Shown: positions 1,653 to 28,816 of the stretch, one piece after another
Layout: the number at the start of each line of letters is the position of its first letter
Position numbering within the stretch: the stretch's first letter is position 1
NCBI GenBank assembly: GCA_963815115.1
Contig: CAWFFN010000008.1
Location: 768,001 to 832,000 of the forward strand
From: an uncultured delta proteobacterium
GTDB taxonomy: Bacteria > Desulfobacterota > Binatia > DP-6
Direction of reading: 5' to 3'
Length of the DNA stretch: 64,000 nucleotides
Translations under genes and position numbers: made by a program
Notes under the pieces: model-generated
What the model was told of the DNA's origin: nothing
The model's input: the letters and a program-made list of their open reading frames with translations, nothing else
Databases searched by the model: none

Positions 1653-2101
1653 CGTCAGGATTCCCTCCCTTTCGTGATGGCTCACGAAACCCGTGACCGC
1701 CTGCTGACAGCCAAACGCTCGCACCGACGGTCCGATTCGGTGACGCGAGATCCACCCCGGCCGAAGAAACGCGCGGCTACCTGCTTGCTCCCATGAGGCG
1801 CCGGTCTTCCGGGGACTGCGGAGGCCTTGGTCAACTACCTGGCGGCGCGTCCCATGGCATGCGCTCATGGCGAACATGCTGCTACCCCTCCTGATCTCAC
1901 CAACCCCTTGCCGCTCATAGACGAAACGCGCGTCGGAGTCACTCTCCGACGTGATCATCCGGGGAGTGCGGGGAGCGCGTCGTAGGGCTCGGAAAGTGCT
2001 CGACTTCATGAGCCGGCATCCTGCAAAAGCTGCTACTGAAGTTGCGACTGCGCCCAGCCTTCGTCTCGCTCGGCATCAGCATCGGAGGCGAGGGGAGAAC
2101 A

Positions 2102-2150
2102 TTGACAGAGCGCCCGCCGTCGCCCTACACTAGGCAAGTAGGACTTTCGT
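2102..2150 (+). promoter_or_regulatory. sigma70-type promoter with overlapping inverted-repeat operator for TA copy 1
   Basis: TTGACA 2102-2107, 18 nt, TACACT 2126-2131; CCTAC...GTAGG inverted repeat over the -10; both boxes conserved at 28012-28040. Confidence 0.8.
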
Positions 2151-2154
2151 ACCC

Positions 2155-2451
2155 GTGGCGAGCGCTGCAACCAAGGTCGGCCCGAAGTTCCAGGTCACCA
2201 TCCCGAAGAACGTCCGGGACGCGGTCGGCCTCAAGGTGGGCGATTTGGTCGAGGCCTCCGTCGGGCGCGAGGGCATCGTCCTCCGCCAGAAGGTTCTCAT
2301 CGACAAGCCAGTGAGTCTGGCAAGGCAACTCGAGGAATCGGACGCGGCGGTGAAGGCCGGACGGGTCCTCGGACCATTCAAATCGGCCGGCGCCGCAATG
2401 AAGGCCGTGAAAGCCCATGCGCGCCGTGCTGACCGAACCGTTCGCCGCTAA
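2155..2451 (+). CDS. AbrB/MazE/SpoVT-family antitoxin (copy 1)
   Basis: TKVGPKFQVTIPKNVRDAVGLKVGD swapped-hairpin motif; overlaps the downstream toxin. Confidence 0.9.
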   Translation: MASAATKVGPKFQVTIPKNVRDAVGLKVGDLVEASVGREGIVLRQKVLIDKPVSLARQLEESDAAVKAGRVLGPFKSAGAAMKAVKAHARRADRTVRR

Positions 2452-2662
2452 CCTGATCGCGAGCCCGCCCGAGGTCCAGAAGGCCTTCGGCAAGCAGCTC
2501 ACGAATCTCCTCCGCGACCTGCGCCACCCTTCCCTGCGAGCGAAGAAGTACGAGGAACGCACGGGCCTCTGGCAAGCCCGGATCAACGACGACTGGCGAA
2601 TGTACTTCACCATCGAGGGCGACGTCTACGTGCTGCGAGCGATCACGCCTCACCCGAAGTAG
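2417..2662 (+). CDS. RelE/ParE-superfamily toxin (copy 1)
   Basis: 81 aa; HPSLRAKK..., WQARINDDWRMYF, C-terminal PH; directly downstream of the antitoxin. Confidence 0.8.
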   Translation: MRAVLTEPFAANLIASPPEVQKAFGKQLTNLLRDLRHPSLRAKKYEERTGLWQARINDDWRMYFTIEGDVYVLRAITPHPK

Positions 2663-2689
2663 CTCGCTCGTGCAGGATGCGTCGGCCAC

Positions 2690-2907
2690 ACTCTTGAGCG
2701 GCGGAATCAGTAGGTCAATGTCCTCGACTGAGCATCGGTCAGTCTCCATCCAGTCACCATGCCCATGCCTCCCGGTGCCTGCCGATGGATGAGCGCGACG
2801 CGTAACCTCCGAATCTTCCGAGATACGGCCACCCGCCGGAACCTCCCGGCAACCTCCTGCGTCCTTTCGTAATCAGTAGGTCGCCGGTTCGACTCCGGCG
2901 GGTGGCT
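2690..2907 (+). mobile_element. type A att-like end: conserved arm plus tRNA-Thr(CGT) 3' half (core 2866-2907)
   Basis: TTCGTAA TCAGT AGGTC GCCGG TTCGACT CCGGC GGGTGGC T = anticodon loop, T-arm and 3' acceptor strand; no D-arm; arm shared with 12119-12338 and 28600-28816. Confidence 0.85.
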
Positions 2908-3236
2908 GTTGGGATTCTGCAGACTTACTGCCTGATGCTGCTAAGAAGGTGGCGGGCTGTGGCACCAAGCGCTGGCCGTGCGAGAATCGGTCAGGCGCAA
3001 TTTCCGTTGACATCGCGCCCCGCGGTGACTGACCGACAAGCGCTCGACCTCCTGGGCGGAGAGGTCCTTCCAGCCGTTCCGTGCCTCGACGGCCTCGCGG
3101 AGGATGTCGAGGTACTCGTCGCGGCTGCGCCCGTACGACCCTGATGTCTGATCGGCGTCTCGTCCTCCTGGCGGGGCCGACCGTGATCCTCCAGCAGCGC
3201 GGTCAGGGTCATCGCCATTGCCCAGACCGCGACTAC

Positions 3237-3304
3237 GCCCGACGACCAGGCGATCAGCGGCGGCCCAGCGTGGCCGGCCGTCCGCTGCACCGGCTTGTGC
3301 TGGC
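3237..3304 (-). other. degenerate integron attC-like site
   Basis: Minus strand GCCAGCAC-AAGCCG-GTGCAGCGG-A-CGGCC...GGCCG-CCGCTGAT...GTCGGGC: paired L boxes with two extrahelical bases; both R boxes deviate from consensus. Confidence 0.5.
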
Positions 3305-3890
3305 GCCGGCCTCGCTGCTGCCGGATCACCGGGGCGAGCGCCCGGAGAGCCTCGTTGACCGATGCGCCATCGGGGAAACATCAAGGACGTCAGGATCGAC
3401 GACGACGACGTTCGTTCCCTGGACGATCCGTCACCGCTGGCGCCAGGTAGTTCTCTACCCGCCACTCCGTCGTCGTCCCCCAACGGGGGAGCGACTTGGT
3501 CGCCAGTCGTCACGACAAGGGCCACCGCTCACGTCGATCGGCTGAACCCTGCCCCTTGCGCCCTACCGCCTGCTGCGCGAGGAGAGACGAGGGAGCAGGG
3601 CGAAGCCCGATACACAGACGGTACCCGGTGCACCTGAGCCCGAGACCGACGCCCTCCCAGGCGCGCCATCACCAGGCCGGATCGAGCACGGGTTCGTCTC
3701 GACGTTCCTCGCCCGCTGGGGGGAGGCGGTCGTGCCCCGATCATCGAGCGCGCGGGCGTGTCGCCGGATCTGATCACGCCCCGCAGCCGCATCGCGGCAG
3801 CCTTGACGTGTCGGTGACCCCGCCGAAGCGCCCGCCTTGCCCTCGGCTGGTGTGACGAGTCTCTCCACGCACACTCATCGGCGTACCACA

Positions 3891-3933
3891 ATCGGCGGGC
3901 TCACATCGGCGGGCTCACAATCGGCGGGCTCAC
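3891..3933 (+). repeat. three tandem copies of ATCGGCGGGCTCAC
   Basis: Copies at 3891-3904, 3905-3918 and 3920-3933. Confidence 0.9.
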
Positions 3934-4019
3934 CGCTTGCGCGCCGCCGGCGTCATGGGCTACCCGCTACTGCTCTGGCAGCGCACTGACGACTCACCGG
4001 GGCGAGGGAGAGCGGACGC

Positions 4020-6452
4020 ATGGAGGCGGCGGATGGAATCGGCGGCGGGCAAGTGGGCAGCGCGACGGGAGCCAGGAGGCGCCGAAAGCGCGCGGCCGCG
4101 GCGAAGCTGACGCGAACCCACCCGCCGGCCGACGCGACACTCGAACAGTGGCAGGTAGCCCTCCGGCGGCAGTTCGGCCGGGCGCAGCCCTTTGGCCTGG
4201 AGAACGTCGGGCCGCACCCCGTCGTCTCCGAGTTTCGGGTCACGAACCCCGCGAGTCGCCAAACCTACCGCGTGGCGATCCGTGGCGTGCAACCGGGCGA
4301 CAACTTCTGCTCCTGCCCGGACTTTGCGACCAACCAGCTCGGCACCTGCAAGCACGTCGAGTTCACGCTCGCACGGCTCGAGCGCCAGCCCGGTGGTAGG
4401 CGGGCGCTTCGCGAGCGGGTTCGGCCGCCCTACAGCGAGGTGTTCCTCTCCTACGGAGTCCGCCGCACGGTCCGGTTCCGTCCGGGAGCCGACGCGCCCA
4501 CCGCCCTGGTTCGGCTCGCGGCACGCCACTTCGACCAGGACGGCGTGCTGCGGCCGGGCGCTTTCGCAACGCTCGGGGAGTTCGTCGCGAAAGCATCCCG
4601 CCTCGATCGCGGCCTCCGGTGCTACGAAGATGCACTCGCGTTCGTGGCCGAGGTCCGCGACGCCCGGCAGCGGCGCGATCGACTCGCTCGCGCGTTCCCG
4701 AGCGGGGCGGACAGCCCGGCCTTCGACGACCTCGTGGGCGTCCCCCTCTATCCGTACCAGCGCGAGGGGGCTCTCTTCGCGGCCCGCGCCGGGCGTTGCC
4801 TCATCGGGGACGAGATGGGGCTCGGCAAGACCGTGCAGGCGATCGCCGCTGTCGAGATCCTGGCGCGCCTCTTCGGCGTCGAGCGCGTGCTCGTCGTCTG
4901 CCCCACGTCGCTCAAGCACCAGTGGGAGCGGGAGATCGCGCGGTTCACCCAGCGGGTGGCCTTGGTCGTGGGAGGTGCCCTCGGCGAGCGGCATGCACAG
5001 TTCCTCGCCGACGGCTTCTACAAGATCACCAACTACGACGCCGTCCATCGCGACCTCGAGGCGATCCGGCGCTGGGCGCCCGACGTGGCGATCCTCGACG
5101 AGGCCCAGCGCATCAAGAACTGGACGACGCGCGCCGCCAGGAGCGTCAAGCAGATCATGTCGCCGTATGCGATCATCCTCACGGGTACCCCGCTGGAGAA
5201 CCGACTCCAGGAGCTGGTCTCGATCGTCGAGTTCATCGACCGGCACCGACTCGGGCCGACGTACCGCTTCCTCCACGACCACCAGCTCGTCGACGAGAGT
5301 GGCCGGGTGGTCGGCTACCGCGATCTCGACCGGATCGGCCGCACGCTGGCGCCGATCCTCATCCGGCGGCGCAAGGCGGATGTCCTGTCGCAGCTCCCAG
5401 GGCGCCTCGAGAAGCGGCTCGTCCTGCCGATGACGACCCAGCAGCTCGCGCACCACGAGGAGAACCGCGAGATCGTGGCCCGCATCGTTCACAAGTGGCG
5501 GCGCTACCGATTCCTGTCCGAGGTGGACCAGCGGCGACTGATGGTCGCGCTGCAGCGCATGCGGATGGCGTGCGACAGCACGTACCTGCTCGACGGGACC
5601 ACCGACTTCGGCCCGAAGCCCGACGAGGCCGCGACGCTGCTCGAGGAGATCTTCGAGGAGCCCGAGACCAAGGTCGTCGTCTTCAGCCAGTGGCTCCGCA
5701 TGCACGAGCTGCTGGTGCGCCGGTTCGAGCGGCGGCAGTGGGACCACGTTCTGTTCCACGGCGGCGTCGACGGCCCGCGGCGCGCAGCGCTGGTCGACCG
5801 ATTCCGCGACGACCCGCGCTGCCGGGCCTTCCTCTCCACCGACGCGGGCGGCGTGGGGCTCAACCTGCAGCACGCGTCGGTAGTCCTCAACATGGACCTG
5901 CCATGGAATCCCGCGGTCCTCGAACAGCGGATCGGGCGGGTACATCGGCTCGGGCAGACACGGCCGGTGCGCGTCGTACACTTCATCGCGCAGGGGACGA
6001 TCGAGGAGGGAATGCTCGCGCGGCTCGGCTTCAAGCGGTCGCTGTTCGCCGGCGTCCTCGATGGCGGCGAGCGCGAGGTCTTCCTCGGCGGCAGCCGGCT
6101 GACCCGCTTCATGGAGAGCGTCGAGCAAGCGACAGCGCAGCCTGGCGCCGAGGAGGCCGGGGCGGTTGACGCAGCTGACGGGCGCCGTGCCGGCGATCCG
6201 CTCCCGGCGGCGTCGCTCGTCGATGCCCTCGGGGGACTGCTTCGGAGCAGTCTCGCGCTCCTCGAGCAGATGAATACGGCGCCCCGAAGCGGGCGCGATG
6301 GCGGGTCGCCAGGTGCTACGCGGCCAGGCATCGAGGTGAGGCGGGACGCGGAGACGGGTGAGGCCGAGGTGACGATCCGGCTCGGGGACGCGGAGAAGGT
6401 CCATCGCCTGTTGCGGTCCGCCGGCGAGCTGCTCGAGGGTCTCCGGAGATAG
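4020..6452 (+). CDS. SWIM zinc-finger SNF2-family helicase/ATPase
   Basis: CSCPDF...CKH SWIM motif; DEMGLGKT, DEAQ, LTGTPLEN, STDAGGVGLNL, QRIGRVHR. Confidence 0.93.
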   Translation: MEAADGIGGGQVGSATGARRRRKRAAAAKLTRTHPPADATLEQWQVALRRQFGRAQPFGLENVGPHPVVSEFRVTNPASRQTYRVAIRGVQPGDNFCSCPDFATNQLGTCKHVEFTLARLERQPGGRRALRERVRPPYSEVFLSYGVRRTVRFRPGADAPTALVRLAARHFDQDGVLRPGAFATLGEFVAKASRLDRGLRCYEDALAFVAEVRDARQRRDRLARAFPSGADSPAFDDLVGVPLYPYQREGALFAARAGRCLIGDEMGLGKTVQAIAAVEILARLFGVERVLVVCPTSLKHQWEREIARFTQRVALVVGGALGERHAQFLADGFYKITNYDAVHRDLEAIRRWAPDVAILDEAQRIKNWTTRAARSVKQIMSPYAIILTGTPLENRLQELVSIVEFIDRHRLGPTYRFLHDHQLVDESGRVVGYRDLDRIGRTLAPILIRRRKADVLSQLPGRLEKRLVLPMTTQQLAHHEENREIVARIVHKWRRYRFLSEVDQRRLMVALQRMRMACDSTYLLDGTTDFGPKPDEAATLLEEIFEEPETKVVVFSQWLRMHELLVRRFERRQWDHVLFHGGVDGPRRAALVDRFRDDPRCRAFLSTDAGGVGLNLQHASVVLNMDLPWNPAVLEQRIGRVHRLGQTRPVRVVHFIAQGTIEEGMLARLGFKRSLFAGVLDGGEREVFLGGSRLTRFMESVEQATAQPGAEEAGAVDAADGRRAGDPLPAASLVDALGGLLRSSLALLEQMNTAPRSGRDGGSPGATRPGIEVRRDAETGEAEVTIRLGDAEKVHRLLRSAGELLEGLRR

Positions 6453-6511
6453 CCCGTGGCTACGATGTCGCCGGCAGGTTCGCTCTCGTGCAGTACACCG
6501 AGCCGCCAGGC

Positions 6512-8920
6512 TCAGCTTCGGCCTTCATCCCTCGGTACCCCGTACCCGAGCACCCGGTAGCCGCGTAGTCGCTTCTCGAACATGCGGGCGAGCATCGGTA
6601 CCCGATGATCGACATAGTCGTAGATCCTCACCTCGGTCTTCTGCGGGTGGAGCCGGCTGAGCCGGCCTGCGTACTGGACGACCGTCCCCCTCCACGCGAT
6701 GGGCAAAGCCAGGAAGAGAGTGTCCAGGCGCGCGTCGTCCAGGCCTTCGCCGACGTAACGACCGGTCGCGAGCACGAGCCGCTCCTCGTGGTCTGGGATC
6801 AGCGCAAGACGGTCGAGAGCTGCACGACGCTCCCCCGCTCGGATTCCACCCTGCAGCACGACGACGTGACGTGCGAAGCCTCGAACGTGGTTCGCCAGAT
6901 ATTCCAGATGGTCCCTGCGCTCCGTCAACACGATGGGGGAACGGCCCTCGTCGACCGCGGCGATGATATCGTTGAGGATCAGCTCGTTCCGCGCTTTGTC
7001 ACCTGCGAGCGCAGCATACAGACCCTGGATGCCCGCGTCGGCGTCGATGGCCTCTGCCTCGAAGTCTGTCTGCCGGCAGATCAGGTGGTGCGCGAACGGC
7101 CGGCGGACTGCGTCGCTGCGTGGATCGACCATGTATCGTACCGGGCCACACTGCATGTGGACGATCGGCTGCTGGCCGTCCCGTCGGTAGGGCGTCGCGG
7201 TCAGCCCGACCACGAAGCGTGCCCTCACCTCGGCGAGCACCCGCTCGAACGACACGGCCGGGAGATGGTGGCATTCGTCGACGATCACGTGGCCGTAGCC
7301 GGCGGTCACTTCATCGACATCGCCGTCGCGGACCAGGCTTTGGATCATGGCCACGTCGACCCATCCCGTCACGCAGCGTTTCCCGCCCCCGATCTGGCCG
7401 ATCGCCTTCGCGTCCACGCCGAAGAACAGCGCGAGCTGCGTCCGCCACTGATCGAGCAAGGGCTTGCGGTGGACCAGCACCAGCGTGCTGCGCCCGCGAG
7501 CCGCGGTGAGATAGGTACCCACGACCGTCTTGCCTGTCCCCGGCGGCGCGACGAGCACGCCGGTATCGTGTGTCAGGAGTTGCTTGACGGCGTCCTGCTG
7601 GACCAGCGTTAGCTCACCGTGAAAGCTGGTCTCGATCGCTCGACCCTCGACCCGCCGGTCGTCCACGCGAAGCGTCGCACCATGGCTCCCGAGGAGCTCG
7701 GCCAGGTCTTCGCCACAGCCACGCGGCAGGGCGAGATGCTGTGGCAGATCCTCAGCGCAAGCGATCACCCGCGGCGTGAGCGCCGTCGACAGGCGTGCCT
7801 TCTGCCGCCGGTAAAACTCCGGGTTCTGGAAGGCCGCGAGGCGCTTGATCTGATTCAGGAGGGCCGACGGCAGGCGAGCCTTCTCGACGAAGAGACGCTG
7901 CGCGAGGACGACTCGAACCTCGGCCGGGACCGGCTCTGTGAGGTGTACACCCCTCGATCGTCGCGGGGACGGGATCACCCAGGGCTGCTCGGCGTCCCCG
8001 TCATCGGTCTGACTGATCTGGAGCCCGATGATCTCGCCACGCCGCGTACCCTGCTCTGCAACCGCCTCGACTGCGCCAGGGTTGATCGGGCGGACACTCG
8101 CAAGGAACGCCCATTGGTCGGGGAACGGCACGAGCGCGTCGTCGACGAACACCGTGTTCCCGCGCTGCCTCGCCCCGTGCTGAAGAGGCAGCGCGATCAG
8201 ATTCCCGAACCCTCCGCGTGGAAGCGTGTCCTGGTTCGGGAAGAGCCGATCGTACGACTCGAGAGACAGCTCATGGCGACGAGCCATCGTTTCCGTAATC
8301 AGGTAGCAGCCCATCTTGCGGGCGGTGCTCGCGAGAACCGGCGCCGCGAAGAAGAACCAGACGTGTGCCCCCTCGCCAGAGCGCGAACGCTCGACGGCAA
8401 CCGGCAAGCTCATGGCACGGCACGTGTCGACGAACGCGGCGACGTCGTCTGCCCAGGACTGCTTGTCGAAATCGGCAACGAGCAGCCAACAACGGCCGTC
8501 TTCGAGCATCGGATAGACGCCGACCACGTGGCGTCCCTGGAGATGATCCAACACCGCCTGGTCACTCACCGGGATGAAGGCCTGGTTCGGACAGTCCCCG
8601 CACTTGACGCGAGGCTTCTCGCACACGCCGCGCACCCATTCATTCGCGCAGGCGGGGGCGTAGCCATGACGGCCGGTGCGGAGGTTATCCCAGTACCGCG
8701 GGTAGACGTCATCGCGGCCGCGGAACAACCTTCGGAACAGGGCAACCTTCTCGGCGGACGTGGCGGGCGACGCCGCCGCGGCGATCGACGCAGTGCCGTT
8801 GCCCAGGGAAGCTTCGAGCGCCCGAAGGCGTTCACGCGTCTGAGCGCGCTCCTGCTCGAGCCGGTCGAGCACCGCCTGCTGTCGCGCAATCTCGCCGAGA
8901 ATGGTCTCGCGATCGCCCAC
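6512..8920 (-). CDS. TOTE-type archaeo-eukaryotic primase domain fused to SF2 DEAD/DEAH helicase
   Basis: FRGRDDVY, ADFD, ERSRSGEGAHVW, YDRLFPNQD, GNLIALPLQ; APPGTGKT, DECHH, TATP, QYAGRLSR; GTG start with GAGGAGG RBS. Confidence 0.88.
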   Translation of the reverse strand: MGDRETILGEIARQQAVLDRLEQERAQTRERLRALEASLGNGTASIAAAASPATSAEKVALFRRLFRGRDDVYPRYWDNLRTGRHGYAPACANEWVRGVCEKPRVKCGDCPNQAFIPVSDQAVLDHLQGRHVVGVYPMLEDGRCWLLVADFDKQSWADDVAAFVDTCRAMSLPVAVERSRSGEGAHVWFFFAAPVLASTARKMGCYLITETMARRHELSLESYDRLFPNQDTLPRGGFGNLIALPLQHGARQRGNTVFVDDALVPFPDQWAFLASVRPINPGAVEAVAEQGTRRGEIIGLQISQTDDGDAEQPWVIPSPRRSRGVHLTEPVPAEVRVVLAQRLFVEKARLPSALLNQIKRLAAFQNPEFYRRQKARLSTALTPRVIACAEDLPQHLALPRGCGEDLAELLGSHGATLRVDDRRVEGRAIETSFHGELTLVQQDAVKQLLTHDTGVLVAPPGTGKTVVGTYLTAARGRSTLVLVHRKPLLDQWRTQLALFFGVDAKAIGQIGGGKRCVTGWVDVAMIQSLVRDGDVDEVTAGYGHVIVDECHHLPAVSFERVLAEVRARFVVGLTATPYRRDGQQPIVHMQCGPVRYMVDPRSDAVRRPFAHHLICRQTDFEAEAIDADAGIQGLYAALAGDKARNELILNDIIAAVDEGRSPIVLTERRDHLEYLANHVRGFARHVVVLQGGIRAGERRAALDRLALIPDHEERLVLATGRYVGEGLDDARLDTLFLALPIAWRGTVVQYAGRLSRLHPQKTEVRIYDYVDHRVPMLARMFEKRLRGYRVLGYGVPRDEGRS

Positions 8921-9671
8921 TGCCTCCTCGCACAGCCCGCTACACCCGGCCCCTGGTGGCGGAGTGCACACTAGCGCCCTACGCGTTCGGAGAGAAGGTC
9001 ACCCTCCGCTCCTCCACCTCTCGGGAGGCGCCCCGCAACTCGAGGAAGAGGTAGGTTTCCCACCTCGCCCAAGAGTCGCGGCGCCTTCCCGGGTCGGGTG
9101 TCGCCCTGTCGGCAGATGACGCACGTCATTGGCTTCGTCCTTGTCGACGGCCCCCCAGGATCCCGACGAGGAAGCCGGGGCTGAAGGGGATGACGTCATC
9201 GCTCCTCCTTCGTAACGGCCCCCTCGAGCAGGGTCCGGCACCCAGAGCAAGGGCCACGGCTAGACGGGATGAGGGAGCCGAGCTTCGCAGGCTGTGAACC
9301 CGGCTCAAGCTCCCAAGACACTCGACGACGCGGGCACGCTTCGAATGCTGCTCCGCCGGCGCTCCACCGTCCACCATGCCGGGGTGGGACCAAAACGCTG
9401 GATGACTGCCAAGCACCTCATGCTCCGGAACCGCAGCCCAGCCGAGTAGTCCACGAGGGCGGGACCTAGCCTGGTGAAGGCGGGGGGTCAGATGGTGTTC
9501 CGATTCCCGAGAAAGGGCTGCTGCCTCCGGGCCGTTTTCCGGGGTGTCAATGGACGAACGGAGCCGGCTCGCGATTTGCACCGGCTAGCCGCCAAAGGGT
9601 GCGACGCGTCCGATGTCCGCCATTGCTGCGATGAATGCCGTCGGAAACGGATTTCAGGGGGGCACGCTGGT

Positions 9672-10520: not shown

Positions 10521-10569
10521 AGGAGGACGAGACATCCCGCCCGCCTTGCCCCGTACTCTCCAGATAACG

Positions 10570-10795: not shown

Positions 10796-12118
10796 TGAGG
10801 CCGCGGCGTTGCCGACCCTCGGCCTCCGCGCGTCGGTGCTGTAGCACCACGGTCACGCGAACTGCGGCAAGAAGAGACGCGAACGTGGAGCGCGTGGGTG
10901 GACCTGCCCCGCGAGGGTTGACGAACGCCTCGGAGGCGGACGTTCGCTGGGATCCCTACCTCCGGATCGAGTTCCTCTCCGAGCTGTGCGGCGTCACGCG
11001 GCGATGTTGAGGGAGGCCGTGGCCAAGGCCTTCTCGCGGAGTTGGATCGCCGGGCTCATGACGGTGTAGCCGAGCTCACTGCGGCATCCACCGCACGTCG
11101 GCGGCTCGTACGGGTTGGCCGTGAGGCGCGCGCCGCACATGGGGCATGGCCGCATCGTCGTCGTCATGGCACGTCTCCGAAATCGGTCTCGGCGCCGTCG
11201 AAGTCGTCGCCGGGCCGTCCTTCCGCTGTCCTCAGTGACTCCCCTCGCTGCTCGACACCCTCGATTACACAGACGATACGAAGGTTGGTGTCGTGGCGCG
11301 GTCTGATTGCGGCGTTCTTATCCATGCGATTTTGCAACTCGTTCCGCCTACCCAAGGCGCGACGATCTACGCTCCAGCGGCCTGCGGCCGTTCGCCGCAT
11401 CGACGGTGCGTGCTGAGGAAGAGCGAACGGCGTGCCAACGAGCTATCGCAACTGAATGCCCACCGTTAGGTGATCAGGGCCTGGCTTGCCTGCGGGCCAA
11501 ACGTAGCTGGGAGCGACGAGATCGTGAGCGTAGGGCGCACGTGGATTCGACGCCCGCCGAGGAGATGAGCGGCTCGGGTGCCGGCGTGGTCCCTCCTGCC
11601 TGCCCCAAAATCAGCTAACGGATCGGGTACCCTAGGGACGCCCAGGCCCGTACGGTGTGAATCGTGGCGGCCGGCGTACAGGTTGCGCGGAGCCAATTGA
11701 AGAAACTTCAGCCGACCGGGCGCCCGTTCCCGGCCGGGAAACACGCTCTGCCGCAATACCGTCACCCTGGGGCGAAGGCTACGCGAACGCGCGCGGGACG
11801 GAGGCGGTCCGCAGTCGAGCCTGATGCGACGGTTCTACCTTGGGGTGGCCGTGACTCGCCATGACTGGAGAAACCTATCGCGCCGGGTTGGTTGAGCAGG
11901 CGGGTCACAGCGAAAGACGGCCCACGGCGCTGCGGCTCCGAATTCGCGTCTCGGCTCGCCAGCCCCCCCGCCCGCTTCGCGGCAACGCTATGACGATTCT
12001 GCTGTTCGCAGCGTCGTGCGTTGTCATCGACTAGGAGGAGTCGCGAGGTGTCCCGCGGCGCCCGCACCGGCGACACCGGACGGAGCCGTAACAGCTCAAC
12101 GCGCCACGGGATTTCAAA

Positions 12119-12338
12119 AGCCACCCGCCGGAGTCGAACCGGCGACCTACTAATTACGAAAGGACGCAGGAGGTTGCCGGCAGGTTCCGGCGGGTGCTCG
12201 TCTCTCGGAAGATTCAGGGGTTACGCGTTGGCGCTGACCCACCAGGAGGCACCGGCAGGCATGGGCATGGTGACTGGATGGAGACTGACCGATGCCTTGG
12301 TGAGGACAGTGACCTATTGATTCTCCACCCGCGGTGAG
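12119..12338 (-). mobile_element. type A att-like end, inverted copy (core 12119-12160)
   Basis: Reverse complement aligns to 2690-2907, including CAGTCTCCATCCAGTCACCATGCCCATGCC and the tRNA-Thr 3' half; more diverged arm. Confidence 0.85.
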
Positions 12339-12444
12339 CGCGCGAGGCGAAGAGGATGGCGCGCTGCTTGGGTTGCCGGGGTGACCACTCACAGCCCCCT
12401 TTGGCGTCGCCCCAATAGTGAAGAACATGCGGCCAGGATCGGCC

Positions 12445-12729
12445 TCAGGCCGCGCGCCGGACCCGGATGTAGGCTTCCAGCCCTGCGGCTTCTACGAGCC
12501 GCAGCACGCGATCGATCGTGACCTTCTGCAGGCTCCCTGAGAGAATGCCCGTGACGGCGCTTCGGGAAAGGCCGGAGTGCGCGGCCAGCTCAGCATGCGT
12601 GAGGCCTCGTCGATCGACCTCTCGCAGGACAGCCGCGATGAGCTGTGCCTTGAGCACTGCCTCGAGACCGCGGCTCTTCGGGATGCCGAGGAGCTTTGCC
12701 AGGCGGTCGGCGGACGTCTTCTTGCTCAT
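12445..12729 (-). CDS. XRE-family HTH antitoxin (HigA-like)
   Basis: GLTHAELAAHSGLSRSAVTGILSG HTH; ATGA overlap with the upstream toxin. Confidence 0.85.
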   Translation of the reverse strand: MSKKTSADRLAKLLGIPKSRGLEAVLKAQLIAAVLREVDRRGLTHAELAAHSGLSRSAVTGILSGSLQKVTIDRVLRLVEAAGLEAYIRVRRAA

Positions 12730-13043
12730 TGCGTCAGCTCCTTCAGACGCTTTCGCGCCAGATCGATGTGGCGTCCAGGGGTTGTCTGCGTGGTCTTCTT
12801 GAAGGTGTGTAGGACATGTACCGCTCCACGACGAATGAGCGCGTAGATCACCCGGTAGTGACCGGAACGATCGCGAAGCCGTAGCTCATGGACGGCCCGG
12901 CCAATGCTGGGCATGGCACGTGACAGCGGCATGGCGAGCATGAGGCCAGCGTCGAGGCGGGCGAGCGCATCTGCGAGATCGCTACGCACATCCATCGGGA
13001 ATGCATCAAGCTCTCGGCGACAAGCCGGGACGATGATGATCAC
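12726..13043 (-). CDS. RelE/ParE-family Gp49-like (HigB-type) toxin
   Basis: MPLSRAM, VHELRLRD, YRVIY, VLHTFKKTTQTT. Confidence 0.88.
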   Translation of the reverse strand: MIIIVPACRRELDAFPMDVRSDLADALARLDAGLMLAMPLSRAMPSIGRAVHELRLRDRSGHYRVIYALIRRGAVHVLHTFKKTTQTTPGRHIDLARKRLKELTQ

Positions 13044-13051
13044 ATGCTAGG

Positions 13052-13067
13052 GTCTCATAAATGAGAC
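13052..13067. promoter_or_regulatory. palindromic operator upstream of the higBA-like operon
   Basis: GTCTCAT-AA-ATGAGAC perfect inverted repeat just upstream of the toxin start. Confidence 0.7.
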
Positions 13068-13165: not shown

Positions 13166-14308
13166 TTACTGTCCCGCCGCGACGTCGAGCTCCGCGAGCA
13201 GGAGGTCGTCCGCAGCCACGAGCATCGAGACTGGGGGGGTACCTGGACCTTGGACCGGCTCCGTTGCGGGCGTCTGCGGGGCTCTGAGCGCGACGTTTCT
13301 TCGCGATCGCGGGCTCGGAACGCCATTGCGGTCGAGGGCCGGCGGATTGATCCACACTTCCGTCGGGGGCTGTTGCACCCGCGGTGTCTTCCCCTTGAAG
13401 CGTTCGGGATGAGCCGCGAATGCCGCCGCGAGCGTTTCCCCCCGTCGTGCCACGATCGCCAGGGCCGTCCCGCTGTGCACGCTCACCGGCGTCAGGAACC
13501 CGATCCCGCTGTGCCGATGCTCTTCGTTGTACCAGGGGAAGAATCGCCGCAGGAATCCCAGGGCGTCCTGCTGCGACCCGAATCGCTCGGGAAACTCCGG
13601 ACGCGACTTCAACGTGCGAAACTGCGACTCCGAAAACGGATTGTCGTTGCTGGTGTACGGTCGCGTCAGGCTCCGCGTGATCGACAGGTCGGCCAACAGC
13701 TGGCCCACCGTCTTCGACGTCATCGCCGGCCCGCGGTCGGAGTGCAGCGTCAGGACCGCCTCCGCGATCCCCTCCTTCTCGCAGCTCTCCTTGATCAAGC
13801 GGCGCGCCAACGTCGCCGACTCTCGATCCGCCAAGAGCCACCCCACCACGTAGCGGCTGAAGATGTCGAGCAGCACGTAGAGGTAGAAGTACGTCCACTT
13901 CGCCGGCCCCTTGAGCTTCGTGATGTCCCACGACCACACCTGGTTCGGTCCCGTCGCCAGGAGCTCGGGCCGCGTCGCCACCGGGTGGCGCAGCTGGTTG
14001 CGCCGCTCGCGGACTTCCCCGTGCCGATCGAGAATCCGGTACATCGTCCGCAGCGAGCAGTGGTAGGTTCCCTCCTCGAGCAACGTCGCGTACACCTCCG
14101 CCGGAGCCTGGTCGATGAACCGTTCCGAATGCAGCACGTCGAGAACGGCAGCCTCCTCGACCTCGGACAATGCCAGCGGCGGCCGCGATCGAACCGCCGT
14201 CTCCGAACATGGTCGCCGCCACCGGTAAAAACTTGCCGGGGCCACGCCCAACGCCCCACAGGCGGCCTGGACCCCCACGGCGTCGGCCAACGTCTGCGCC
14301 GTCGCCAT
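13166..14308 (-). CDS. IS3 transposase OrfB (DDE integrase core)
   Basis: PNQVWSWDIT, LDIFSRYVVGW, LHSDRG, NDNPFSES; in the -1 frame relative to orfA. Confidence 0.92.
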   Translation of the reverse strand: MATAQTLADAVGVQAACGALGVAPASFYRWRRPCSETAVRSRPPLALSEVEEAAVLDVLHSERFIDQAPAEVYATLLEEGTYHCSLRTMYRILDRHGEVRERRNQLRHPVATRPELLATGPNQVWSWDITKLKGPAKWTYFYLYVLLDIFSRYVVGWLLADRESATLARRLIKESCEKEGIAEAVLTLHSDRGPAMTSKTVGQLLADLSITRSLTRPYTSNDNPFSESQFRTLKSRPEFPERFGSQQDALGFLRRFFPWYNEEHRHSGIGFLTPVSVHSGTALAIVARRGETLAAAFAAHPERFKGKTPRVQQPPTEVWINPPALDRNGVPSPRSRRNVALRAPQTPATEPVQGPGTPPVSMLVAADDLLLAELDVAAGQ

Positions 14309-14787
14309 CAGCTCCCGACCTCCTCGTCGCTCGGCGGCAGCCCCAGCAACTGTGAGACTTTTTTTTGAACGTCGATGATCACGTGCGCCTTGCGCAGCTC
14401 CTCCCGCAGCCGCGCGTTCTCCCGCTCCATCCCGGCGAGTCGCTTCGCCAACGGATGCGCCACCGCCTTGCGCCCGCGCGCGTGCCCCGCCAGCCCGACC
14501 AACGCCCCCGCCTCGCGCTGCTGACGCCACACGCTCAGATGCGACGTGTAGAGCCCCTCGCGTCGCAGCAGCGCCCCGATCTCCCCCGGCTCGCGACACC
14601 CGTCGGCCTCGGCCAGGAGCTGTCGCTTGTACTCGGCCGTGAACCGGCGCCGCTGCGCCTTCGCCGGAACCTCCGGATTCTTGCGGCCCGTCGGCGCCGG
14701 CGCGCCCGCAACTTCAGTCGCCCTACGGGCTCCTTCCGTTCCGGGCGCGCTTCCTGATCCCCCGCCATCCCTCACCTTCACTCCCAC
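14308..14787 (-). CDS. IS3 transposase OrfA (HTH plus leucine zipper)
   Basis: RRRFTAEYK, IGALLRREGLY, ENARLREEL...DVQKKV; true start uncertain. Confidence 0.88.
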   Translation of the reverse strand: MGVKVRDGGGSGSAPGTEGARRATEVAGAPAPTGRKNPEVPAKAQRRRFTAEYKRQLLAEADGCREPGEIGALLRREGLYTSHLSVWRQQREAGALVGLAGHARGRKAVAHPLAKRLAGMERENARLREELRKAHVIIDVQKKVSQLLGLPPSDEEVGS

Positions 14788-17030: not shown

Positions 17031-17083
17031 CCGTGGCGACCGGCGGTCGTGGCGGAACCCAGTTTGCTGCTAGGTTCGTCGGC

Positions 17084-18330: not shown

Positions 18331-18343
18331 CGACCAAGCCCCG

Positions 18344-21247: not shown

Positions 21248-21470
21248 ATGAGCTGCGACGGACTGACAGGCTGGCTCAAGCATCTCGTGGGACGACAGCC
21301 CTTCTTCCCGCATCAGATGTCGTTCATCCTGGAGCTTCCGGCGCGGCGGCTCTTGATCACACCGTCACAGCTGGCGGACCGACTGCATCTGGCGCCGAGC
21401 TCGAAGGTGCTCGAGGTCGGCTGCGGTTCGGGCGTGTTCAGCGTCGAGGTGGCGCGACACCTGCCCGCCC
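21248..21470 (+). pseudogene. class I methyltransferase 5' fragment
   Basis: VLEVGCGSG motif I, then an abrupt switch to an unrelated fragment (TYGRDVDWARN). Confidence 0.65.
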
Positions 21471-21819
21471 TGGAGCTACACCGCAAACTTCCGGCGACCG
21501 TGATCCCGATGACCTACGGGCGCGATGTCGACTGGGCCCGTAATCTCGTCAAGGCGCGCGCCGGCGAGGTCGTCCAGCTGGGCCGGCGCTTCACCCTCGC
21601 CTTACCCTCTCCCATCTCGTGGTGCAGGTTCCGTGCCGGTGCCGCGACGCCACTCTGCGTGCCGTTCCGGATCGAGGCACGAGCAGACGATTCCCAGGGA
21701 TGAAAGTCGTCGGCAGTCCGGCGGTTCCGCCGGTGAGCAACGGCATCAGGTTCCCCGGCGGCCCCGCGTCGCCAGTTGGTGATTGCAGGGACGGCACGCC
21801 GGGAGGTATGGCCTCGCGG

Positions 21820-22158
21820 ATGGTTGATGCGACGATCCCATCCGCCGAGGCCCTCGAGATCGGTTCCCTGCTCGCGTACGCGGAGCAGGGAATCGCCAGC
21901 CGCGTGCTCGCCAAGACCGGCGGTGGAAACGTGACGCTGTTCGCGTTCGATACCGGGCAGGGGCTCAGTGAGCACACGGCGCCGTTCGACGCGCTCGTGT
22001 TCGTGCTGGACGGAGGGCTGACGCTCACCGTCGGCGGGCGCCCCGTCGCCGCCCTGCCCGGCACGGTCGTCCGCATGCCCGCCCACGTGCCGCACGCCCT
22101 CGAAGCGACGTCGCGCACGAAGGTGCTGCTCGTCATGCTGCGCGTGCAGGGCGAGTGA
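21820..22158 (+). CDS. cupin domain protein
   Basis: VTLFAFDTGQGLSEHTAPFDA, MPAHVPHAL. Confidence 0.88.
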   Translation: MVDATIPSAEALEIGSLLAYAEQGIASRVLAKTGGGNVTLFAFDTGQGLSEHTAPFDALVFVLDGGLTLTVGGRPVAALPGTVVRMPAHVPHALEATSRTKVLLVMLRVQGE

Positions 22159-22343
22159 GCACCGCCGCTCGCAACGTTGATGCGCCAGAAAGACTCACCG
22201 CAGCGGCGCGGAGACGCGGAGATAGTGTGCTTGAGATTTGTGTCCGCGGTTGAATCTTCTCGAGGCCGCTTCTTCTCATCGGGTCGCGTTGAAGCGCGTC
22301 GTGGCGCTCTAACCCGAGGGATGAAATGACACCGCGGCCACCA

Positions 22344-22556
22344 ATGATCGACGGACGGATCGTTCTGCCGGACGATCGTCGGCTCGGCTTCGCGGAGTTC
22401 GGCGCGCCGACCGGGAAGCCGGTGTCCTGGTTCCACCGCACGCCGGGCGCGCGGCGCCAGATCCCGCCTGAGGCGCGTCTGGGGGCGCAACGGCTCGGGG
22501 TCCGCTTGATCGCCCTCGATCGACCGGGAGTGGGCGATTCGACGCCGCATCGCGCC
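22344..22556 (+). pseudogene. alpha/beta hydrolase 5' fragment
   Basis: LPDDRRLGFAEFG, RLIALDRPGVGDS; truncated. Confidence 0.75.
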
Positions 22557-22579
22557 GCGCGTCGCGGGCGGCGGACTCT

Positions 22580-23067
22580 AGGGTGGCACCCCTTGCCGAA
22601 GGGCGTGGCCTTCCTGCCGCGCTACGCCACTGTGTCGGCCGCGGCCAACCATCGCTACCTCGATGCCCTGGCCGTCGTCGACGACCCCGCCCCCGCTCAT
22701 CGTGCCCTCGACCGCCTCGTGCAGCCAGTGCGGGATCGCCACGGCCGGTCGTCGAGTGCCTTCAAGCCCACGACCACCCCCGTCGTCACCCTGTTCGCCG
22801 CTGTGCTCCGTGGGGAGCACACGCTCCAGGGCTTCCGCAACCGCGAGCTGCGGCACGCGGCTGTTCGGTCCCACTGCTGCTGCCGATCGCCGGCGCAGCG
22901 GACAGGTCTCACGCCTTGTCAAACGGCTTCACCTGCGCGGCCTGGTCGCGAAGATTCCTCGCTCGTGCCGCTGGCGGATCACCCAACTCGGACATGCCCT
23001 CCTGAGCGCGGCCATCCAGCTCCGCGAGGAGGCGTTCCCCACCGCCTTCCTCAAGACCGCCGCGTGA
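22580..23067 (+). pseudogene. C-terminal remnant of a putative mobile-element protein with winged-helix tail
   Basis: AANHRYLDALA, GFRNRELR, frameshift, VSRLVKRLHLRGLVAKIP...WRIT..G. Confidence 0.55.
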
Positions 23068-23122
23068 CGCGGCAAGATGTCCGCACGTTGCAGAGAACTC
23101 GGACAGGAAGAGTCCATCTGCC

Positions 23123-23671
23123 TCAGAAGTCGCGTTCGATCCGCAACGCGACGATAGTGGTTGCGAGGCTATCGTATTGCGCCACGAGCAAGCAGAATTC
23201 GATCATCCGGCGGTCGTCGAGATGTGCCGCCAGCGCAGCCCAGGTGGTGTCGTCGAGGTCCTTGGTCTCGATGAGGGAACCGACAGCCGTCAATAACGCG
23301 CGGTGTCGCGGGCTCCATCCTTCGGCACCGGGTCCCGTCAGGATGCGCTCCAGGATCTCGGCGGTGACCCCGGCGCGGCGTCCCAGGCGAACGTGATGGT
23401 CCATCTCGTACTGGCAACCGCGCAGGTGTGCGACGCGGAGTATCACCAGCTCCGTCTCATGACGCGACAGCTTGCCGCCGGGCATGAGCTTGCCGGAGAA
23501 GTGGAGCCAACCTCGGAACAGCCCCTTGGTGCGACCGAGCGTACTGAACAGATGGACATCGCGTACTCCGGCGCCGAGGGACAAAATCCTCCACAGCCCC
23601 CAGTTAATGAGGCCGAGCTCCTTGAAGCGTCCGGGAGGGATGCGGGATGCCGACGCGTTGCCGGTACTCAC
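23123..23671 (-). CDS. carboxymuconolactone decarboxylase/AhpD family protein
   Basis: ETELVILRVAHLRGCQYEMDHH; GTG start inferred. Confidence 0.85.
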   Translation of the reverse strand: MSTGNASASRIPPGRFKELGLINWGLWRILSLGAGVRDVHLFSTLGRTKGLFRGWLHFSGKLMPGGKLSRHETELVILRVAHLRGCQYEMDHHVRLGRRAGVTAEILERILTGPGAEGWSPRHRALLTAVGSLIETKDLDDTTWAALAAHLDDRRMIEFCLLVAQYDSLATTIVALRIERDF

Positions 23672-23775
23672 CTTGTCCTTTCGGGCAGCGCGGTGGATTC
23701 CGGAAAGCACGGTGATCAACCGAGGAACTTCGGTGGATCCGAACTTCGCGATCGTGACGCCGTGAGCGCGCCGCC

Positions 23776-26205: not shown

Positions 26206-26363
26206 GAGCAGTTCCTCCAACCGGCGGCGCGGGCTATCCACAGAGAGCTCCGCGGAATTCACCCTACGCGTCGGGCGAATCGGGTGTCAACCGCGCACGC
26301 CTCGCGCAGCGAGGCGCAGCCGATCGAAGTCAGCGGAACGACCCTGCAGGCTGCAGAAAACGC

Positions 26364-27030
26364 TCAGCGCTTGAGCTCGGAGAACTGGATCGAGCAGACG
26401 CAGATGTACCCTCTCGACCCGTCACGCGGCCTGGTCGTGCCCAATGCGGGCGCCACGACGGCGCCGCACGTGCTGCACCCAAGCATGCTCGGGACTCTCA
26501 ACGGGCTCCCCGTCGACCCGGCGATCCAGTGCACCCTCTCGACGAGCCAGCGCCCAAATGCATTCCTCCGCAGCCCGATCAGGGAGCTCGCCACGGGAGA
26601 CCTGCGCCATCCGACACAACCGCGTCACCGGATACCGACCTTTCTCCGCCTCGACGAACCGGTAGCGGCTCATCGGGTTTCCATCGCGAAGAAAGCCGCC
26701 CGCTTCAGGATGTCTCGCTCCTCGTGCAGCACCTGCACCTCCCGCCGCAACCGCCGCAGCTCCTCGCGCTCTTCGATCGTCAACCCGTCGCGCTCGCCCG
26801 CGTCCACGGCCGCCTGCCCGACCCAGCGCCGCACCGCCGTCTCACTCAGGTCCAGCTCACGACAGATCGCTGGCAGCGATCGCTCGCCCCGGCGCACCAC
26901 GGCGATGACCTCGGCCTTGAACTCCGGCGTGAACGACCGCCGCTGCCGCCGGCGTGCCCCGTTCCCTTCCGCCTTCTTCCCCATTCGGACTCCCTCCACG
27001 TGGGCTCACGCCCACATCCGGGATGTCCAC
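26364..27030 (-). mobile_element. decayed IS3-family element (orfA intact, orfB largely deleted)
   Basis: orfA 26670-26999 RRSFTPEFK...EERDILKRAAFFA; orfB start MSRYRFVEAEK..YPV..LC then collapses. Confidence 0.85.
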
Positions 27031-27039
27031 GCGTTCGTA

Positions 27040-27450
27040 TCGATGAAGGCGCACGGGCTGTCCTCCGCGCCACTGCGGTACGGTCCGCAGCACACCACGG
27101 GGTCATCCGCGAGGAGCCCCAATCGACGACGGGAGGACAGCTCGATGGAACGCTACTACGTGGGTCTCGACGTGCATAGCCGCGAGAGTGTGTTCGTCAT
27201 CAAGAGGCATGACGGGGAGCTCGTCGACCGCGGCGCGCTCCCCACGACCGCGCTGGGTCTCGCGCGCCTCCGCGACGAGCACGGCTTGCCCCCAGGGACG
27301 CCCATCGCCCTCGAGACCGGCACGTCCGCCTTCTTCGTGGCGAGCTCGCCCGCCTCGACCTCACGCCGGTCGTGATCGATGCACACGAGGTCCGCCGCAA
27401 GGCCCACCGCCCGCTCCAGAAGAGTGACCGCCGCGACGCACTCGAGGAGT
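27040..27450 (+). mobile_element. IS110-family left end and DEDD N-terminal transposase remnant
   Basis: ATG 27145 YYVGLDVH, ALETGT, frameshift, KSDRRDA; upstream inverted repeat 27057-27066 / 27132-27141. Confidence 0.85.
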
Positions 27451-27595
27451 CGCTGGCGCTCATTCACGAGATTCGTCCCCGAGGAGTTCGATGCGGACGA
27501 ACCGATCATCAAGCCATGACTTCGGGGGGGCCACCCAGCTTCAGCTGCTTGGCAACGGGTCCTTCATCGCGTCGGTCGCGCTCGATGCACAGGCA

Positions 27596-27829
27596 GCGCG
27601 TCGCGACGTACACTGGCTACATCCGGTCCCTCGGCATCGGAGTACCGACTGATTCAACGGTAGCGCCGCGGACGACGGTTTCTGCTACCGCGCTGCTACC
27701 ACTCCCACCCAACCCAGGACGCACGAGGCGAAAGTGTGGTCACTCGTGATCGTCGGTTTTCCGTGGGGATAGGTCTCCCTGGTGCTGCGAAGTTTCGCCT
27801 CTATCCGAGTTCGTAATCAGTCGGTCGCC
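27596..27829 (+). mobile_element. type B att-like end with truncated tRNA-Thr core (27810-27829)
   Basis: Aligns to 41211-41458; TGCTACC direct repeats; TTCGTAATCAGTCGGTCGCC then breaks off. Confidence 0.75.
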
Positions 27830-28011
27830 CTCCGAGGCGAACCTCGTTCGTCGTCCCATGATTCCATCCAACTCGACGTCTGCAGCCTCGCGAAACTCGG
27901 GGCGGTTCAATCCTCGATGAGAAGGCGTTGGAGGAAGGGATGAAGAGAAATGGAAGCGGACCGCGTTCTGCGAACCCGCGGGCGCCTTGGGCACACCGGA
28001 GGAGAGGAGCG

Positions 28012-28060
28012 TTGACAGAACGACCCAGCCTTCCTACACTACGAAAGTAGGACTTTCCTA
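28012..28060 (+). promoter_or_regulatory. sigma70-type promoter and operator for TA copy 2
   Basis: TTGACA, 17 nt, TACACT; CCTAC/GTAGG and GTAGGA-CTT-TCCTAC inverted repeats. Confidence 0.82.
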
Positions 28061-28063
28061 CCC

Positions 28064-28360
28064 ATGGCAACCGCTGCAACCAAGGTCGGACCGAAGTTCC
28101 AGGTCACCATCCCGAAGAACGTCCGGGATGCCGTCGGGCTGAAGGTGGGCGACCTGGTCGAGGCCTCCGTGGGGCGCGAGGGCATCGTCCTCCGCCAGAA
28201 GGTTCTCATCGACAAGCCAGTGAGCCTGGCAAGGCAGCTCGAGGAATCGGAAGCGGCGGTGAAGGCGGGGCGGGTCCTCGGACCGTTCAAGTCGGCCGGT
28301 ACCGCAATGAGGGCCGTGAAAGCCCATGCGCGCCGTGCTGACCGAACCGTTCGCCGCTAA
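28064..28360 (+). CDS. AbrB/MazE/SpoVT-family antitoxin (copy 2)
   Basis: Four amino-acid differences from copy 1. Confidence 0.9.
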   Translation: MATAATKVGPKFQVTIPKNVRDAVGLKVGDLVEASVGREGIVLRQKVLIDKPVSLARQLEESEAAVKAGRVLGPFKSAGTAMRAVKAHARRADRTVRR

Positions 28361-28571
28361 CCTGATCGCGAGCCCGCCGGAGGTCCAGAAGGCTTTCGGC
28401 AAGCAGCTCACGAATCTCCTCCGCGACCTGCGCCACCCTTCCCTGCGAGCGAAGAAGTACGAGGAACGCACGGGCCTCTGGCAAGCCCGGATCAACGACG
28501 ACTGGCGGATGTACTTCACCATCGAGGGCGACGTCTACGTGCTGCGAGCGATCACGCCTCACCCGAAGTAG
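28326..28571 (+). CDS. RelE/ParE-superfamily toxin (copy 2)
   Basis: Protein identical to copy 1; only synonymous changes seen. Confidence 0.8.
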   Translation: MRAVLTEPFAANLIASPPEVQKAFGKQLTNLLRDLRHPSLRAKKYEERTGLWQARINDDWRMYFTIEGDVYVLRAITPHPK

Positions 28572-28599
28572 CTCGCTCGTGCAGGGTGCGACGGCCACA

Positions 28600-28816
28600 C
28601 TCTCGAGCGGCGGAATCAGTAGGTCAGTGTCCTCGACTGAGCATCGGTCAGTCTCCATCCAGTCACCATGCCCATGCCTCCCGGTGCCTGCCGATGGATG
28701 AGCGCGACGCGTAACCTCCGAATCTTCCGAGACACGGCCACCCGCCGGAACCTCCCGGCAACCTCCTGCGTCCTTTCGTAATTAGTAGCTCGCCGGTTCG
28801 ACTCCGGCGGGTGGCT
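28600..28816 (+). mobile_element. type A att-like end (core 28775-28816)
   Basis: Near-identical to 2690-2907. Confidence 0.85.

Follow-up and report, generated by a model that had tools for sequence, protein, structure and literature searches.

Why do several attachment ends in one bacterial chromosome each lie beside a toxin–antitoxin (TA) pair? The window analyzed here, a 64,000-nucleotide stretch of contig C8 of an uncultured delta proteobacterium (genome G000), contains three such ends. A preliminary description had proposed that every end of this type is joined to an intact, exchangeable TA module that protects it, as part of an undescribed family of non-autonomous elements.

Attachment ends and their tRNA target

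At each of the three ends, an arm of ∼165 bp (arm A) precedes a core. Copies 1 and 2 lie on the plus strand, with arms at 2704–2865 and 28613–28774 and cores at 2866–2907 and 28775–28816, the second core carrying two substitutions, while copy 3 is inverted (arm 12161–12323, core 12119–12160, minus strand). The core is a displaced 3′ half of tRNA-Thr(CGT), starting in the anticodon loop, and the intact gene is found at C8:696366–696439, 71 kb upstream of the in-window ends. Displaced tRNA 3′ fragments downstream of an intact gene are the attR signature of tRNA-targeted tyrosine-integrase islands. Among the best 150 of 330 matches, none consisted of the 5′ half of tRNA-Thr(CGT) alone. The idea that arm and core together rebuild a tRNA was rejected, with ARAGORN predicting zero tRNAs in the window.

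In total, the genome contains six arm A ends, all on C8, three inside the window and three outside. The six arms differ pairwise at 2–24 of about 168 sites, and non-twin copies are 86–91% identical. Arm A was also found in 22 contigs from eight independent metagenomes. The arm contains a tandem 10-bp arm-type repeat, confined within G000 to the six right arms, and its last ∼40 bp repeat the tRNA 3′ half imperfectly and in inverted orientation. A core-like motif, which may be an IHF site, marks its left end in all 28 loci covering that stretch.

TA pairs beside the arms

Copies 1 and 2 (2155–2662 and 28064–28571, plus strand) each combine an AbrB/MazE-type antitoxin gene (2155–2451 and 28064–28360; PF04014 and TIGR01439 above cut-off) with an 81-aa RelE-like toxin gene (2417–2662 and 28326–28571), the two toxins having zero amino-acid changes in the codons compared. 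The family call of this toxin rests on a PHROG 1213 match (E 1.4e-5) that lies below curated Pfam/NCBIfam cut-offs, accompanied by weak YoeB/HigB matches in the PDB and, for a close homologue, a weak ParE_like match. Copy 3 (13043–12445, minus strand) consists of a Gp49-like RelE toxin (12726–13043) and an HTH_37 antitoxin (12445–12729), both identified by profile matches, as was an IS3-like rve transposase (13166–14599, minus strand) just upstream of the Gp49 gene. As the preliminary description had reported, all three pairs have open frames and are directed at the core, their stop codons lying 41 bp (copies 1 and 2) or about 121 bp (copy 3) before the arm. With an antitoxin-family and a toxin-family gene, both small and overlapping, sharing an operon, the layout is that of a putative type II TA system.

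Upstream of copy 1, we found a sigma-70-type promoter-like site (2102–2131, plus strand) that agrees with the consensus at 10 of 12 positions, against 0.1 such sites expected in shuffled sequence; a search after the same copy revealed no short intrinsic terminator. Two RNA sequencing runs cover parts of the unit, and strand and expression are not readable from them. Broken pairs occur as well: between the HTH gene and the arm, copy 3 retains a 65-bp degenerate RelE-like 3′ tail (12364–12428, minus strand), apparently left after loss of an AbrB/RelE pair and found at the same junction in metagenome locus L032, and the 3′ two-thirds of an orphan RelE-like gene (46619–46795, plus strand) is followed by only the first arm A motif.

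Among intact AbrB, RelE and HTH copies, pN/pS was about 0.04–0.12, which shows purifying selection on the intact TA genes, and the AbrB copies differ mainly at synonymous sites. Copies 1 and 2 are mosaic, with 21, 8, 6 and 5 differences per 100 bp across the promoter and AbrB gene and 1–3 in the RelE gene and arm. Synonymous TA sites (pS 0.19–0.30) are less conserved than the arms, and selection on the arm was therefore recent. Such recent selection in a genome in which no A-type integrase was found counts against the explanation that we prefer below.

The search for a cognate element

The hotspot downstream of the tRNA spans 134 kb, and its segments carry metabolic and defence cargo. None of the 18 PF00589 matches of G000 fell within C8:696–846 kb; the integrase search was genome-wide, while the Pfam scan took in 49 of the roughly 150 ORFs called in the hotspot. 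Integrase remnants are found in the window, as a C-terminal tyrosine integrase fragment in the next element (29225–29374, plus strand; PF00589, below cut-off) and as a frameshifted piece of another tyrosine integrase (47319–47713, minus strand; tblastn, 55% to the G018 integrase). A second kind of end, type B, is represented by an arm (27592–27829, plus strand) whose core, at 27810, is degenerate and cut short and precedes TA copy 2 by 250 bp, and by a ParE 3′ relic followed by a type B arm and core (41104–41460, plus strand; 83% to C8:707757–707889). As G000 has neither an A-type left arm nor a cognate integrase, the arm A segments look like one-ended relics.

A recurrent non-tRNA right arm is also present in G000; searches of 24 genomes of the family and of viral contigs did not recover it. 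A putative left end is the non-tRNA arm at C8:746682. One 24-kb segment has a conserved non-tRNA arm on one side, arm A on the other, and no integrase.

The closest counterpart was found in relative G006, in which the same tRNA holds a 10.2-kb element encoding a 430-aa integrase, an HTH protein, a primase, an HNH protein and a large terminase; judging by gene order, we presume it to be PICI-like. Its attR aligns with arm A end to end and its attL has the same type of tandem repeat, so that arm-type repeats, putatively bound by the integrase, are common to both ends of an integrase-encoding element. Because a homologous arm ends this intact element, arm A is the P arm of an attR. It is a previously undescribed arm family with an intact satellite-like relative. 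The slot at the arm of the G006 element is occupied by the terminase region and not by a TA pair, contrary to the idea that the TA is intrinsic to the arm.

Further homologues were scarce. BLAST found arm A in none of 60 relatives, and a pattern search of 400 genomes of the class gave one true match (G006) and two chance matches. Four pattern matches in viral contigs included no genuine case, and a loose motif scan of genome contigs gave seven matches, of which one was real (L035) and six were discarded as chance. Relatives of the G006 integrase were absent from viral contigs and only distant within the family, and four that we inspected carry other repeats. An A-type element that is autonomous and bears a TA pair at attR did not emerge from these searches.

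TA states across arm A loci

We tabulated the DNA preceding arm A, as the preliminary description had proposed, and found TA DNA within 1.3 kb of the arm at 24 of 27 informative loci (genome and metagenomes combined), compared with 1 of 21 other attR-like ends. TA loci number roughly one for every 100 kb or more of the genome, and the adjacency is therefore not a matter of chance; profile matches in its 6.9 Mb number 40 for PIN, 24 for Phd, 6 for AbrB, 5 for ParE and 5 for Gp49. Homologues of the RelE-like gene occur in 8 of 60 relatives. The claim that every arm A end has an intact TA failed: a verifiably intact pair was present at 9 of the 27 loci, relics only at 11 and no TA at 3, although assembly error may account for some of the frameshifts seen in metagenome contigs. 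Outside the window, one end in the genome has a frameshifted AbrB/RelE pair, another an AbrB fragment with a divergently transcribed UPF0175/DUF3368 pair, and the third a frameshifted ParE gene.

Exchangeability held in part: six TA families occupy the slot before arm A, but a clean swappable cassette is not what we see. Four loci (L013, L014, L019 and L030) have the order Gp49/HTH, AbrB/RelE, arm, and all four contain at least one broken gene. MazEF precedes a ParE relic in L016 and L024, Phd precedes one in L012, and the derived states in copy 3 and L032 retain the older toxin tail. The breakpoints are scattered, at about –35, –44, –95, –162, –200, –354 and –382, and the deletions extend into the TA itself. 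Three loci with no TA (L017, L022 and L027) end abruptly at the first motif of the arm or no more than 10 bp from it, and this could be a recombination point. Conservation of the arm was the same whatever the TA state (identity 0.894 in the 7 arms that have an intact TA and 0.894 in the 11 that do not; p = 0.79), which argues against the TA protecting the end.

Explanations for the TA slot

The reading that we favor, with a probability of roughly two in three, is that arm A and core form the attR of islands in which, in this lineage, the TA operon in the last slot was renewed by stacking and deletion and not by cassette swap. A tyrosine integrase would have inserted the islands in succession at the anticodon loop of tRNA-Thr(CGT), and a TA at the attR of the ancestral element would have served as its addiction module when excised. 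Related elements may then have accreted in tandem, losing the integrase and left arms while their TAs eroded. New TAs would have come in upstream within the TA-rich hotspot, so that the older pair was no longer needed and was largely removed by deletions whose ends are scattered; the ends may be reshuffled when the ∼800-bp TA-plus-arm repeats undergo homologous recombination. This order of events is read from the relics, and the tree is unrooted and mostly unresolved.

The slot could instead belong, along the lines of the preliminary description, to a living family of non-autonomous elements, mobilized in trans, that keeps a TA at attR as protector of end and cargo and exchanges it for other addiction or defence modules. 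The association of TA DNA with arm A, the six arms in one genome, the constrained arms and TA genes, and the integrase-less 24-kb segment all suit such a family. The 14 loci with relics or no TA, the indifference of arm identity to TA state, the deletions reaching into the TA, and the lack in G000 of a cognate integrase and of a left arm with the A-type repeat do not, leaving the family unproven and, in our judgment, unlikely. We regard as rather improbable a related proposal of an active, helper-dependent arm A family, in which addiction modules replaced in relay at a dedicated TA slot keep the end in the population, the integrase reads an 85-bp palindrome made from an inverted tRNA copy, and the recurrent AlpA-linked arm acts as a short-core left end by which the tRNA is not restored. 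Pure hitchhiking, in which one or two ancestral TA–arm fusions were inherited and other TA families only reflect a TA-rich hotspot, gains from about seven further TA loci located away from the arms, the crowding of TA pairs at the same tRNA in relatives G005, G006, G013 and G056, the close kinship of all arm A loci, and the occurrence of the same ParE relic before a type B arm. Four further families (Gp49/HTH, MazEF, Phd and UPF0175/PIN) have nevertheless settled no farther than 1.3 kb from the arm among the 27 loci, and intact pairs are enriched there (9/27 versus 1/21; Fisher p = 0.03, the kin not being independent), making pure hitchhiking improbable.

Integron-like exchange, with the arm–core hairpin and the left core-like motif as sites for swapping or stacking TA cassettes, draws on a predicted structure: the inverted tRNA copy gives an 85-nt imperfect hairpin across arm and core (z –4.8 and –5.9), and none of 1,000 arm-only shuffles was as stable. 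The ubiquity of the left motif and the degenerate core upstream of TA copy 2 point in the same direction. However, the crossover point falls in the hairpin loop and not the stem, no comparable fold forms at the type B junction (z –0.65), the arm also occurs on an ordinary integrase element in G006, and stacked TA modules show no motif between them and no fixed junctions; we consider such exchange very improbable. An assembly artefact of repeated sequence is next to negligible. No contig from a sequencing run spans the whole TA–arm–core unit with both flanks, the best run containing 0.35 of its words, but the arms differ, the copies diverge with a synonymous bias, C8 is 846 kb long, and the same units and junctions recur in the independent metagenomes.

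Comparison with known systems

The arrangement is a variant of a known pattern, an addiction module at the right end of an island, and not a new cassette system or class, because most pairs are broken and were likely replaced through stacking and deletion. A TA beside attR is already in print: Shewanella GI21 has its integrase at attL and hipAB, a type II TA, adjoining attR21, interpreted as an addiction module of the excised form (PMC8978831). SXT mosAT and SGI1 sgiAT reportedly follow the same pattern. Unlike in those islands, six TA families, most of them eroded and known from sequence alone, succeed one another here.

The hotspot resembles the CIMEs formed by tandem ICE/IME accretion at one att site, in which decayed elements devoid of integrase pile up at the target gene's 3′ end, with chimeric att junctions of several integrase families between them (PMC5704250). 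Integration and transfer genes have likewise been lost here, but whereas a CIME retains both attL and attR of one family, the family A ends in this genome are all right arms, six in number, with a TA slot alongside. The G006 element, with integrase, HTH, primase, HNH and large terminase within 10 kb, is like the PICI-like satellites at tRNA genes; the G000 segments lack these genes and carry metabolic and defence cargo instead. In 5 of 24 arm A junctions, the right arm joins at the loop and the tRNA is not rebuilt, as in the short-core attP of tRNA-dependent lysogeny (PMC10865867); unlike there, we found no disrupted or element-borne tRNA, and the resemblance is a lead only. The accessible part of the KKP paper does not treat att-end slots (PMC11341870). 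Chromosomal TAs of Photorhabdus are similarly acquired and eroded, clustering in high-turnover spots and becoming pseudogenes with their neighbours neither protected nor conserved, while att arms of tRNA islands are not treated in the available portion of that study (PMC13617665).

Implications

Beside a single fixed landmark, the arm A loci show clearly, in a series provided by nature, how TAs succeed one another through stacked, half-deleted and relic states, and they define an arm family and its satellite-like relative in an uncultured soil lineage. The series bears on whether chromosomal TAs protect neighbouring DNA, and the evidence here is that they do not.

Toxin-Antitoxin Pairs at the Arm A Ends

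The three toxin-antitoxin (TA) units reported next to arm A, the ~165-bp arm preceding a displaced tRNA-Thr(CGT) 3' half (core), are present in the window at 2155-2907 (copy 1), 28064-28816 (copy 2), and, inverted, 13043-12119 (copy 3). Their frames are open and all directed toward the core, with TA-to-arm distances of 41, 41, and about 121 bp. The antitoxins and Gp49 exceed curated cut-offs, while for the 81-aa toxin only a PHROG hit and weak PDB matches point to a RelE-like protein; the rve transposase upstream of the Gp49 gene is presumably IS3-like. Copy 3 is flanked by an 88-bp inverted repeat (80%; 10987-11074 and 22987-23074), possibly the trace of a 12-kb inversion.

Assembly duplication, a possibility raised in the preliminary description, does not explain the copies, because the arms are distinguished by 2-24 differences over about 168 sites and the differences between the AbrB genes of copies 1 and 2 are mostly synonymous (16 synonymous, 4 nonsynonymous). 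The genome under study (G000) has six arm A ends, and the three outside the window contradict the claim that every such end carries an intact TA: the first follows a frameshifted AbrB/RelE pair, the second an AbrB fragment and a divergent UPF0175/DUF3368 pair, and the third a frameshifted ParE.

An exact search with a 24-base motif found 22 arm A loci in eight metagenomes, and a looser search gave seven matches, one of them real (L035). Together with the six G000 copies, the set comprised 29 loci, 27 of which were informative after excluding two with less than 100 bp of upstream DNA (L021 and L026). An intact TA pair lay within 1.3 kb of the arm in 9 loci (eight directed toward the arm and one divergent); in 4 the TA was cut by the contig end or its partner was unknown, 11 had only broken TA genes or relics, a count in which some metagenome frameshifts are possibly errors, and 3 had no TA, one of these with just 292 bp of upstream DNA. 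The families involved were AbrB/RelE-like, Gp49/HTH, ParE-type, MazEF, Phd, and UPF0175/PIN. As a control, we used 21 other attR-like ends at tRNA-Thr(CGT) from 11 relatives, in 20 regions picked from the best 150 of 330 matches, and scanned 137 of the 147 ORFs within 1 kb; one end had a TA. The control is blind to relics, and the fair comparison is therefore 9/27 intact pairs vs. 1/21 (p = 0.03, the loci being kin and not independent). The association extends beyond the window and is real and lineage-specific. The L035 contig, with intact AbrB/RelE and arm A, matches C8:731-733 kb over 1.4 kb at 91%; its metagenome-assembled genome is labeled Actinomycetota, which suggests either mis-binning or transfer. 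Relatives from other families (G041, G057, G025, and G056; L066-L072) likewise have several attR arms, of other types, at tRNA-Thr(CGT); these lack integrases and have no TAs.

Likely Turnover of the TA Slot

The suggestion that the TA is exchangeable holds in that six families occupy the slot. A clean cassette exchange is not supported: the deletions end at scattered positions, and the stacked modules of the surveyed loci have no core-like site between them. Four loci (L013, L014, L019, and L030) have the order Gp49/HTH, AbrB/RelE, arm, each with at least one broken gene. In window copy 3 and L032, the same stack has lost AbrB/RelE except for the toxin tail. A ParE tail is preceded by MazEF in L016 and L024 and by Phd in L012, and in L015 a broken AbrB/RelE is followed by a broken ParE pair. 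Copies 1 and 2 are mosaic, and the near identity of RelE and arm beside a diverged promoter and AbrB points to homologous recombination. A ParE tail also stands ahead of an arm of type B (window 41104-41237), and the TA link is therefore not exclusive to type A.

Arm A as a Probable Attachment Arm

The left end of arm A bears a core-like motif that may be IHF-like. The arm also contains a 10-bp tandem repeat, and directly before the crossover it copies the tRNA 3' half imperfectly and in inverted orientation. This inverted copy makes arm and core fold as an 85-nt imperfect hairpin (window 2827-2908; z of -4.8 and -5.9), whose stability was equaled in none of 1,000 shuffles of the arm part; the type B junction gave no hairpin fold. 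At C8:720924, a truncated core is preceded by a shorter inverted tRNA copy.

An intact, satellite-like 10.2-kb element, presumably PICI-like, lies at tRNA-Thr(CGT) in the relative G006 (L057:7710-17875, contig C9) and codes for a 430-aa integrase, HTH proteins, a primase, an HNH protein, and a large terminase, as well as a 415-aa gene with no NCBIfam match. Arm A is alignable end to end with its attR, and its attL carries a tandem repeat of the arm A type. By this homology, arm A would be the P arm of attR for a G006-type integrase. The arm-adjacent gene in G006 belongs to the terminase region, not to a TA; two TA pairs lie just past attR. Elsewhere in G000 the A-type repeat was not found; it is confined to the six right arms, and the G000 segments therefore lack A-type left ends. 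No close G006-type integrase was detected, the nearest being 30-36% identical with other repeats.

Of the 24 loci with sequence beyond the anticodon loop, 5 carry a conserved non-tRNA arm joined to arm A exactly at that loop (G000:C8:746682-747062, equal to L003:16682-17062; L023, L027, L029, and L033). This second arm has the start of an AlpA gene and a symmetrical core-like site whose inverted halves enclose a different 7-bp spacer. The arm tree, though poorly resolved, puts these loci on separate branches. The non-tRNA arm could represent a left end with a short core, of the kind described for tRNA-dependent lysogeny (PMC10865867), or else a secondary target. Directly behind its arm A core, L015 has an integrase that looks intact, accompanied by an HTH_17 excisionase (1759-3426), both of the type B repeat family; its frame continues through the tRNA fragment.

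The Island Stack

The window is C8:768001-832000 of the G000 genome (6.9 Mb, 70% GC, 12 contigs), which is very TA-rich overall, with 40 matches to PIN and 24 to Phd. The core repeated here corresponds to the tRNA-Thr(CGT) 3' half beginning at the anticodon loop; the intact gene, 71 kb upstream of the window, occupies C8:696366-696439. Between this gene and about 816 kb, island remnants are stacked, with cores, at least four arm types, IS pieces, metabolic cargo, and defense-like genes. None of the 18 genome-wide PF00589 matches falls within this stack, which contains two integrase remnants. Convergent SNF2 helicase and AEP-TOTE primase-helicase genes (window 4020-8971) are probable defense cargo, and TOTE is also present near arm A in L033. 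A carotenoid-type gene cluster, read from translations (G000:C8:758336-766635; L004), lies inside a 24-kb segment ending in arm A copy 1, and a methyltransferase region is duplicated at 95% identity (G000:C8:698553-699405 and window 35903-36754).

Discussion

The arm A ends are likely attR sites with an adjoining TA, left in a tandem array of decayed islands, the TA slot turning over by stacking and erosion. Against this reading, conservation is stronger in the arms than at synonymous sites even though no cognate integrase was found, and three TA-less loci break close to the arm's left motif. The proposal that the TA protects the att end is opposed by the arm identity, which is equal with (0.894, n = 7) and without (0.894, n = 11) an intact TA; the intact TA genes themselves are under purifying selection.

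In the literature searched, largely open-access articles, we found no report of TAs replacing one another in series at a single att arm. Decayed elements are known to accumulate at one att site (PMC5704250), and the G000 stack, which likewise consists of decayed islands at one tRNA site, resembles such CIME-like accretion. GI21, which has been described and tested, has its integrase at attL and, like arm A, a TA beside attR (PMC8978831); TA clustering and erosion with no protection of neighbors are also known (PMC13617665). The association of TAs with arm A is real and well above chance, yet a variant of described patterns.
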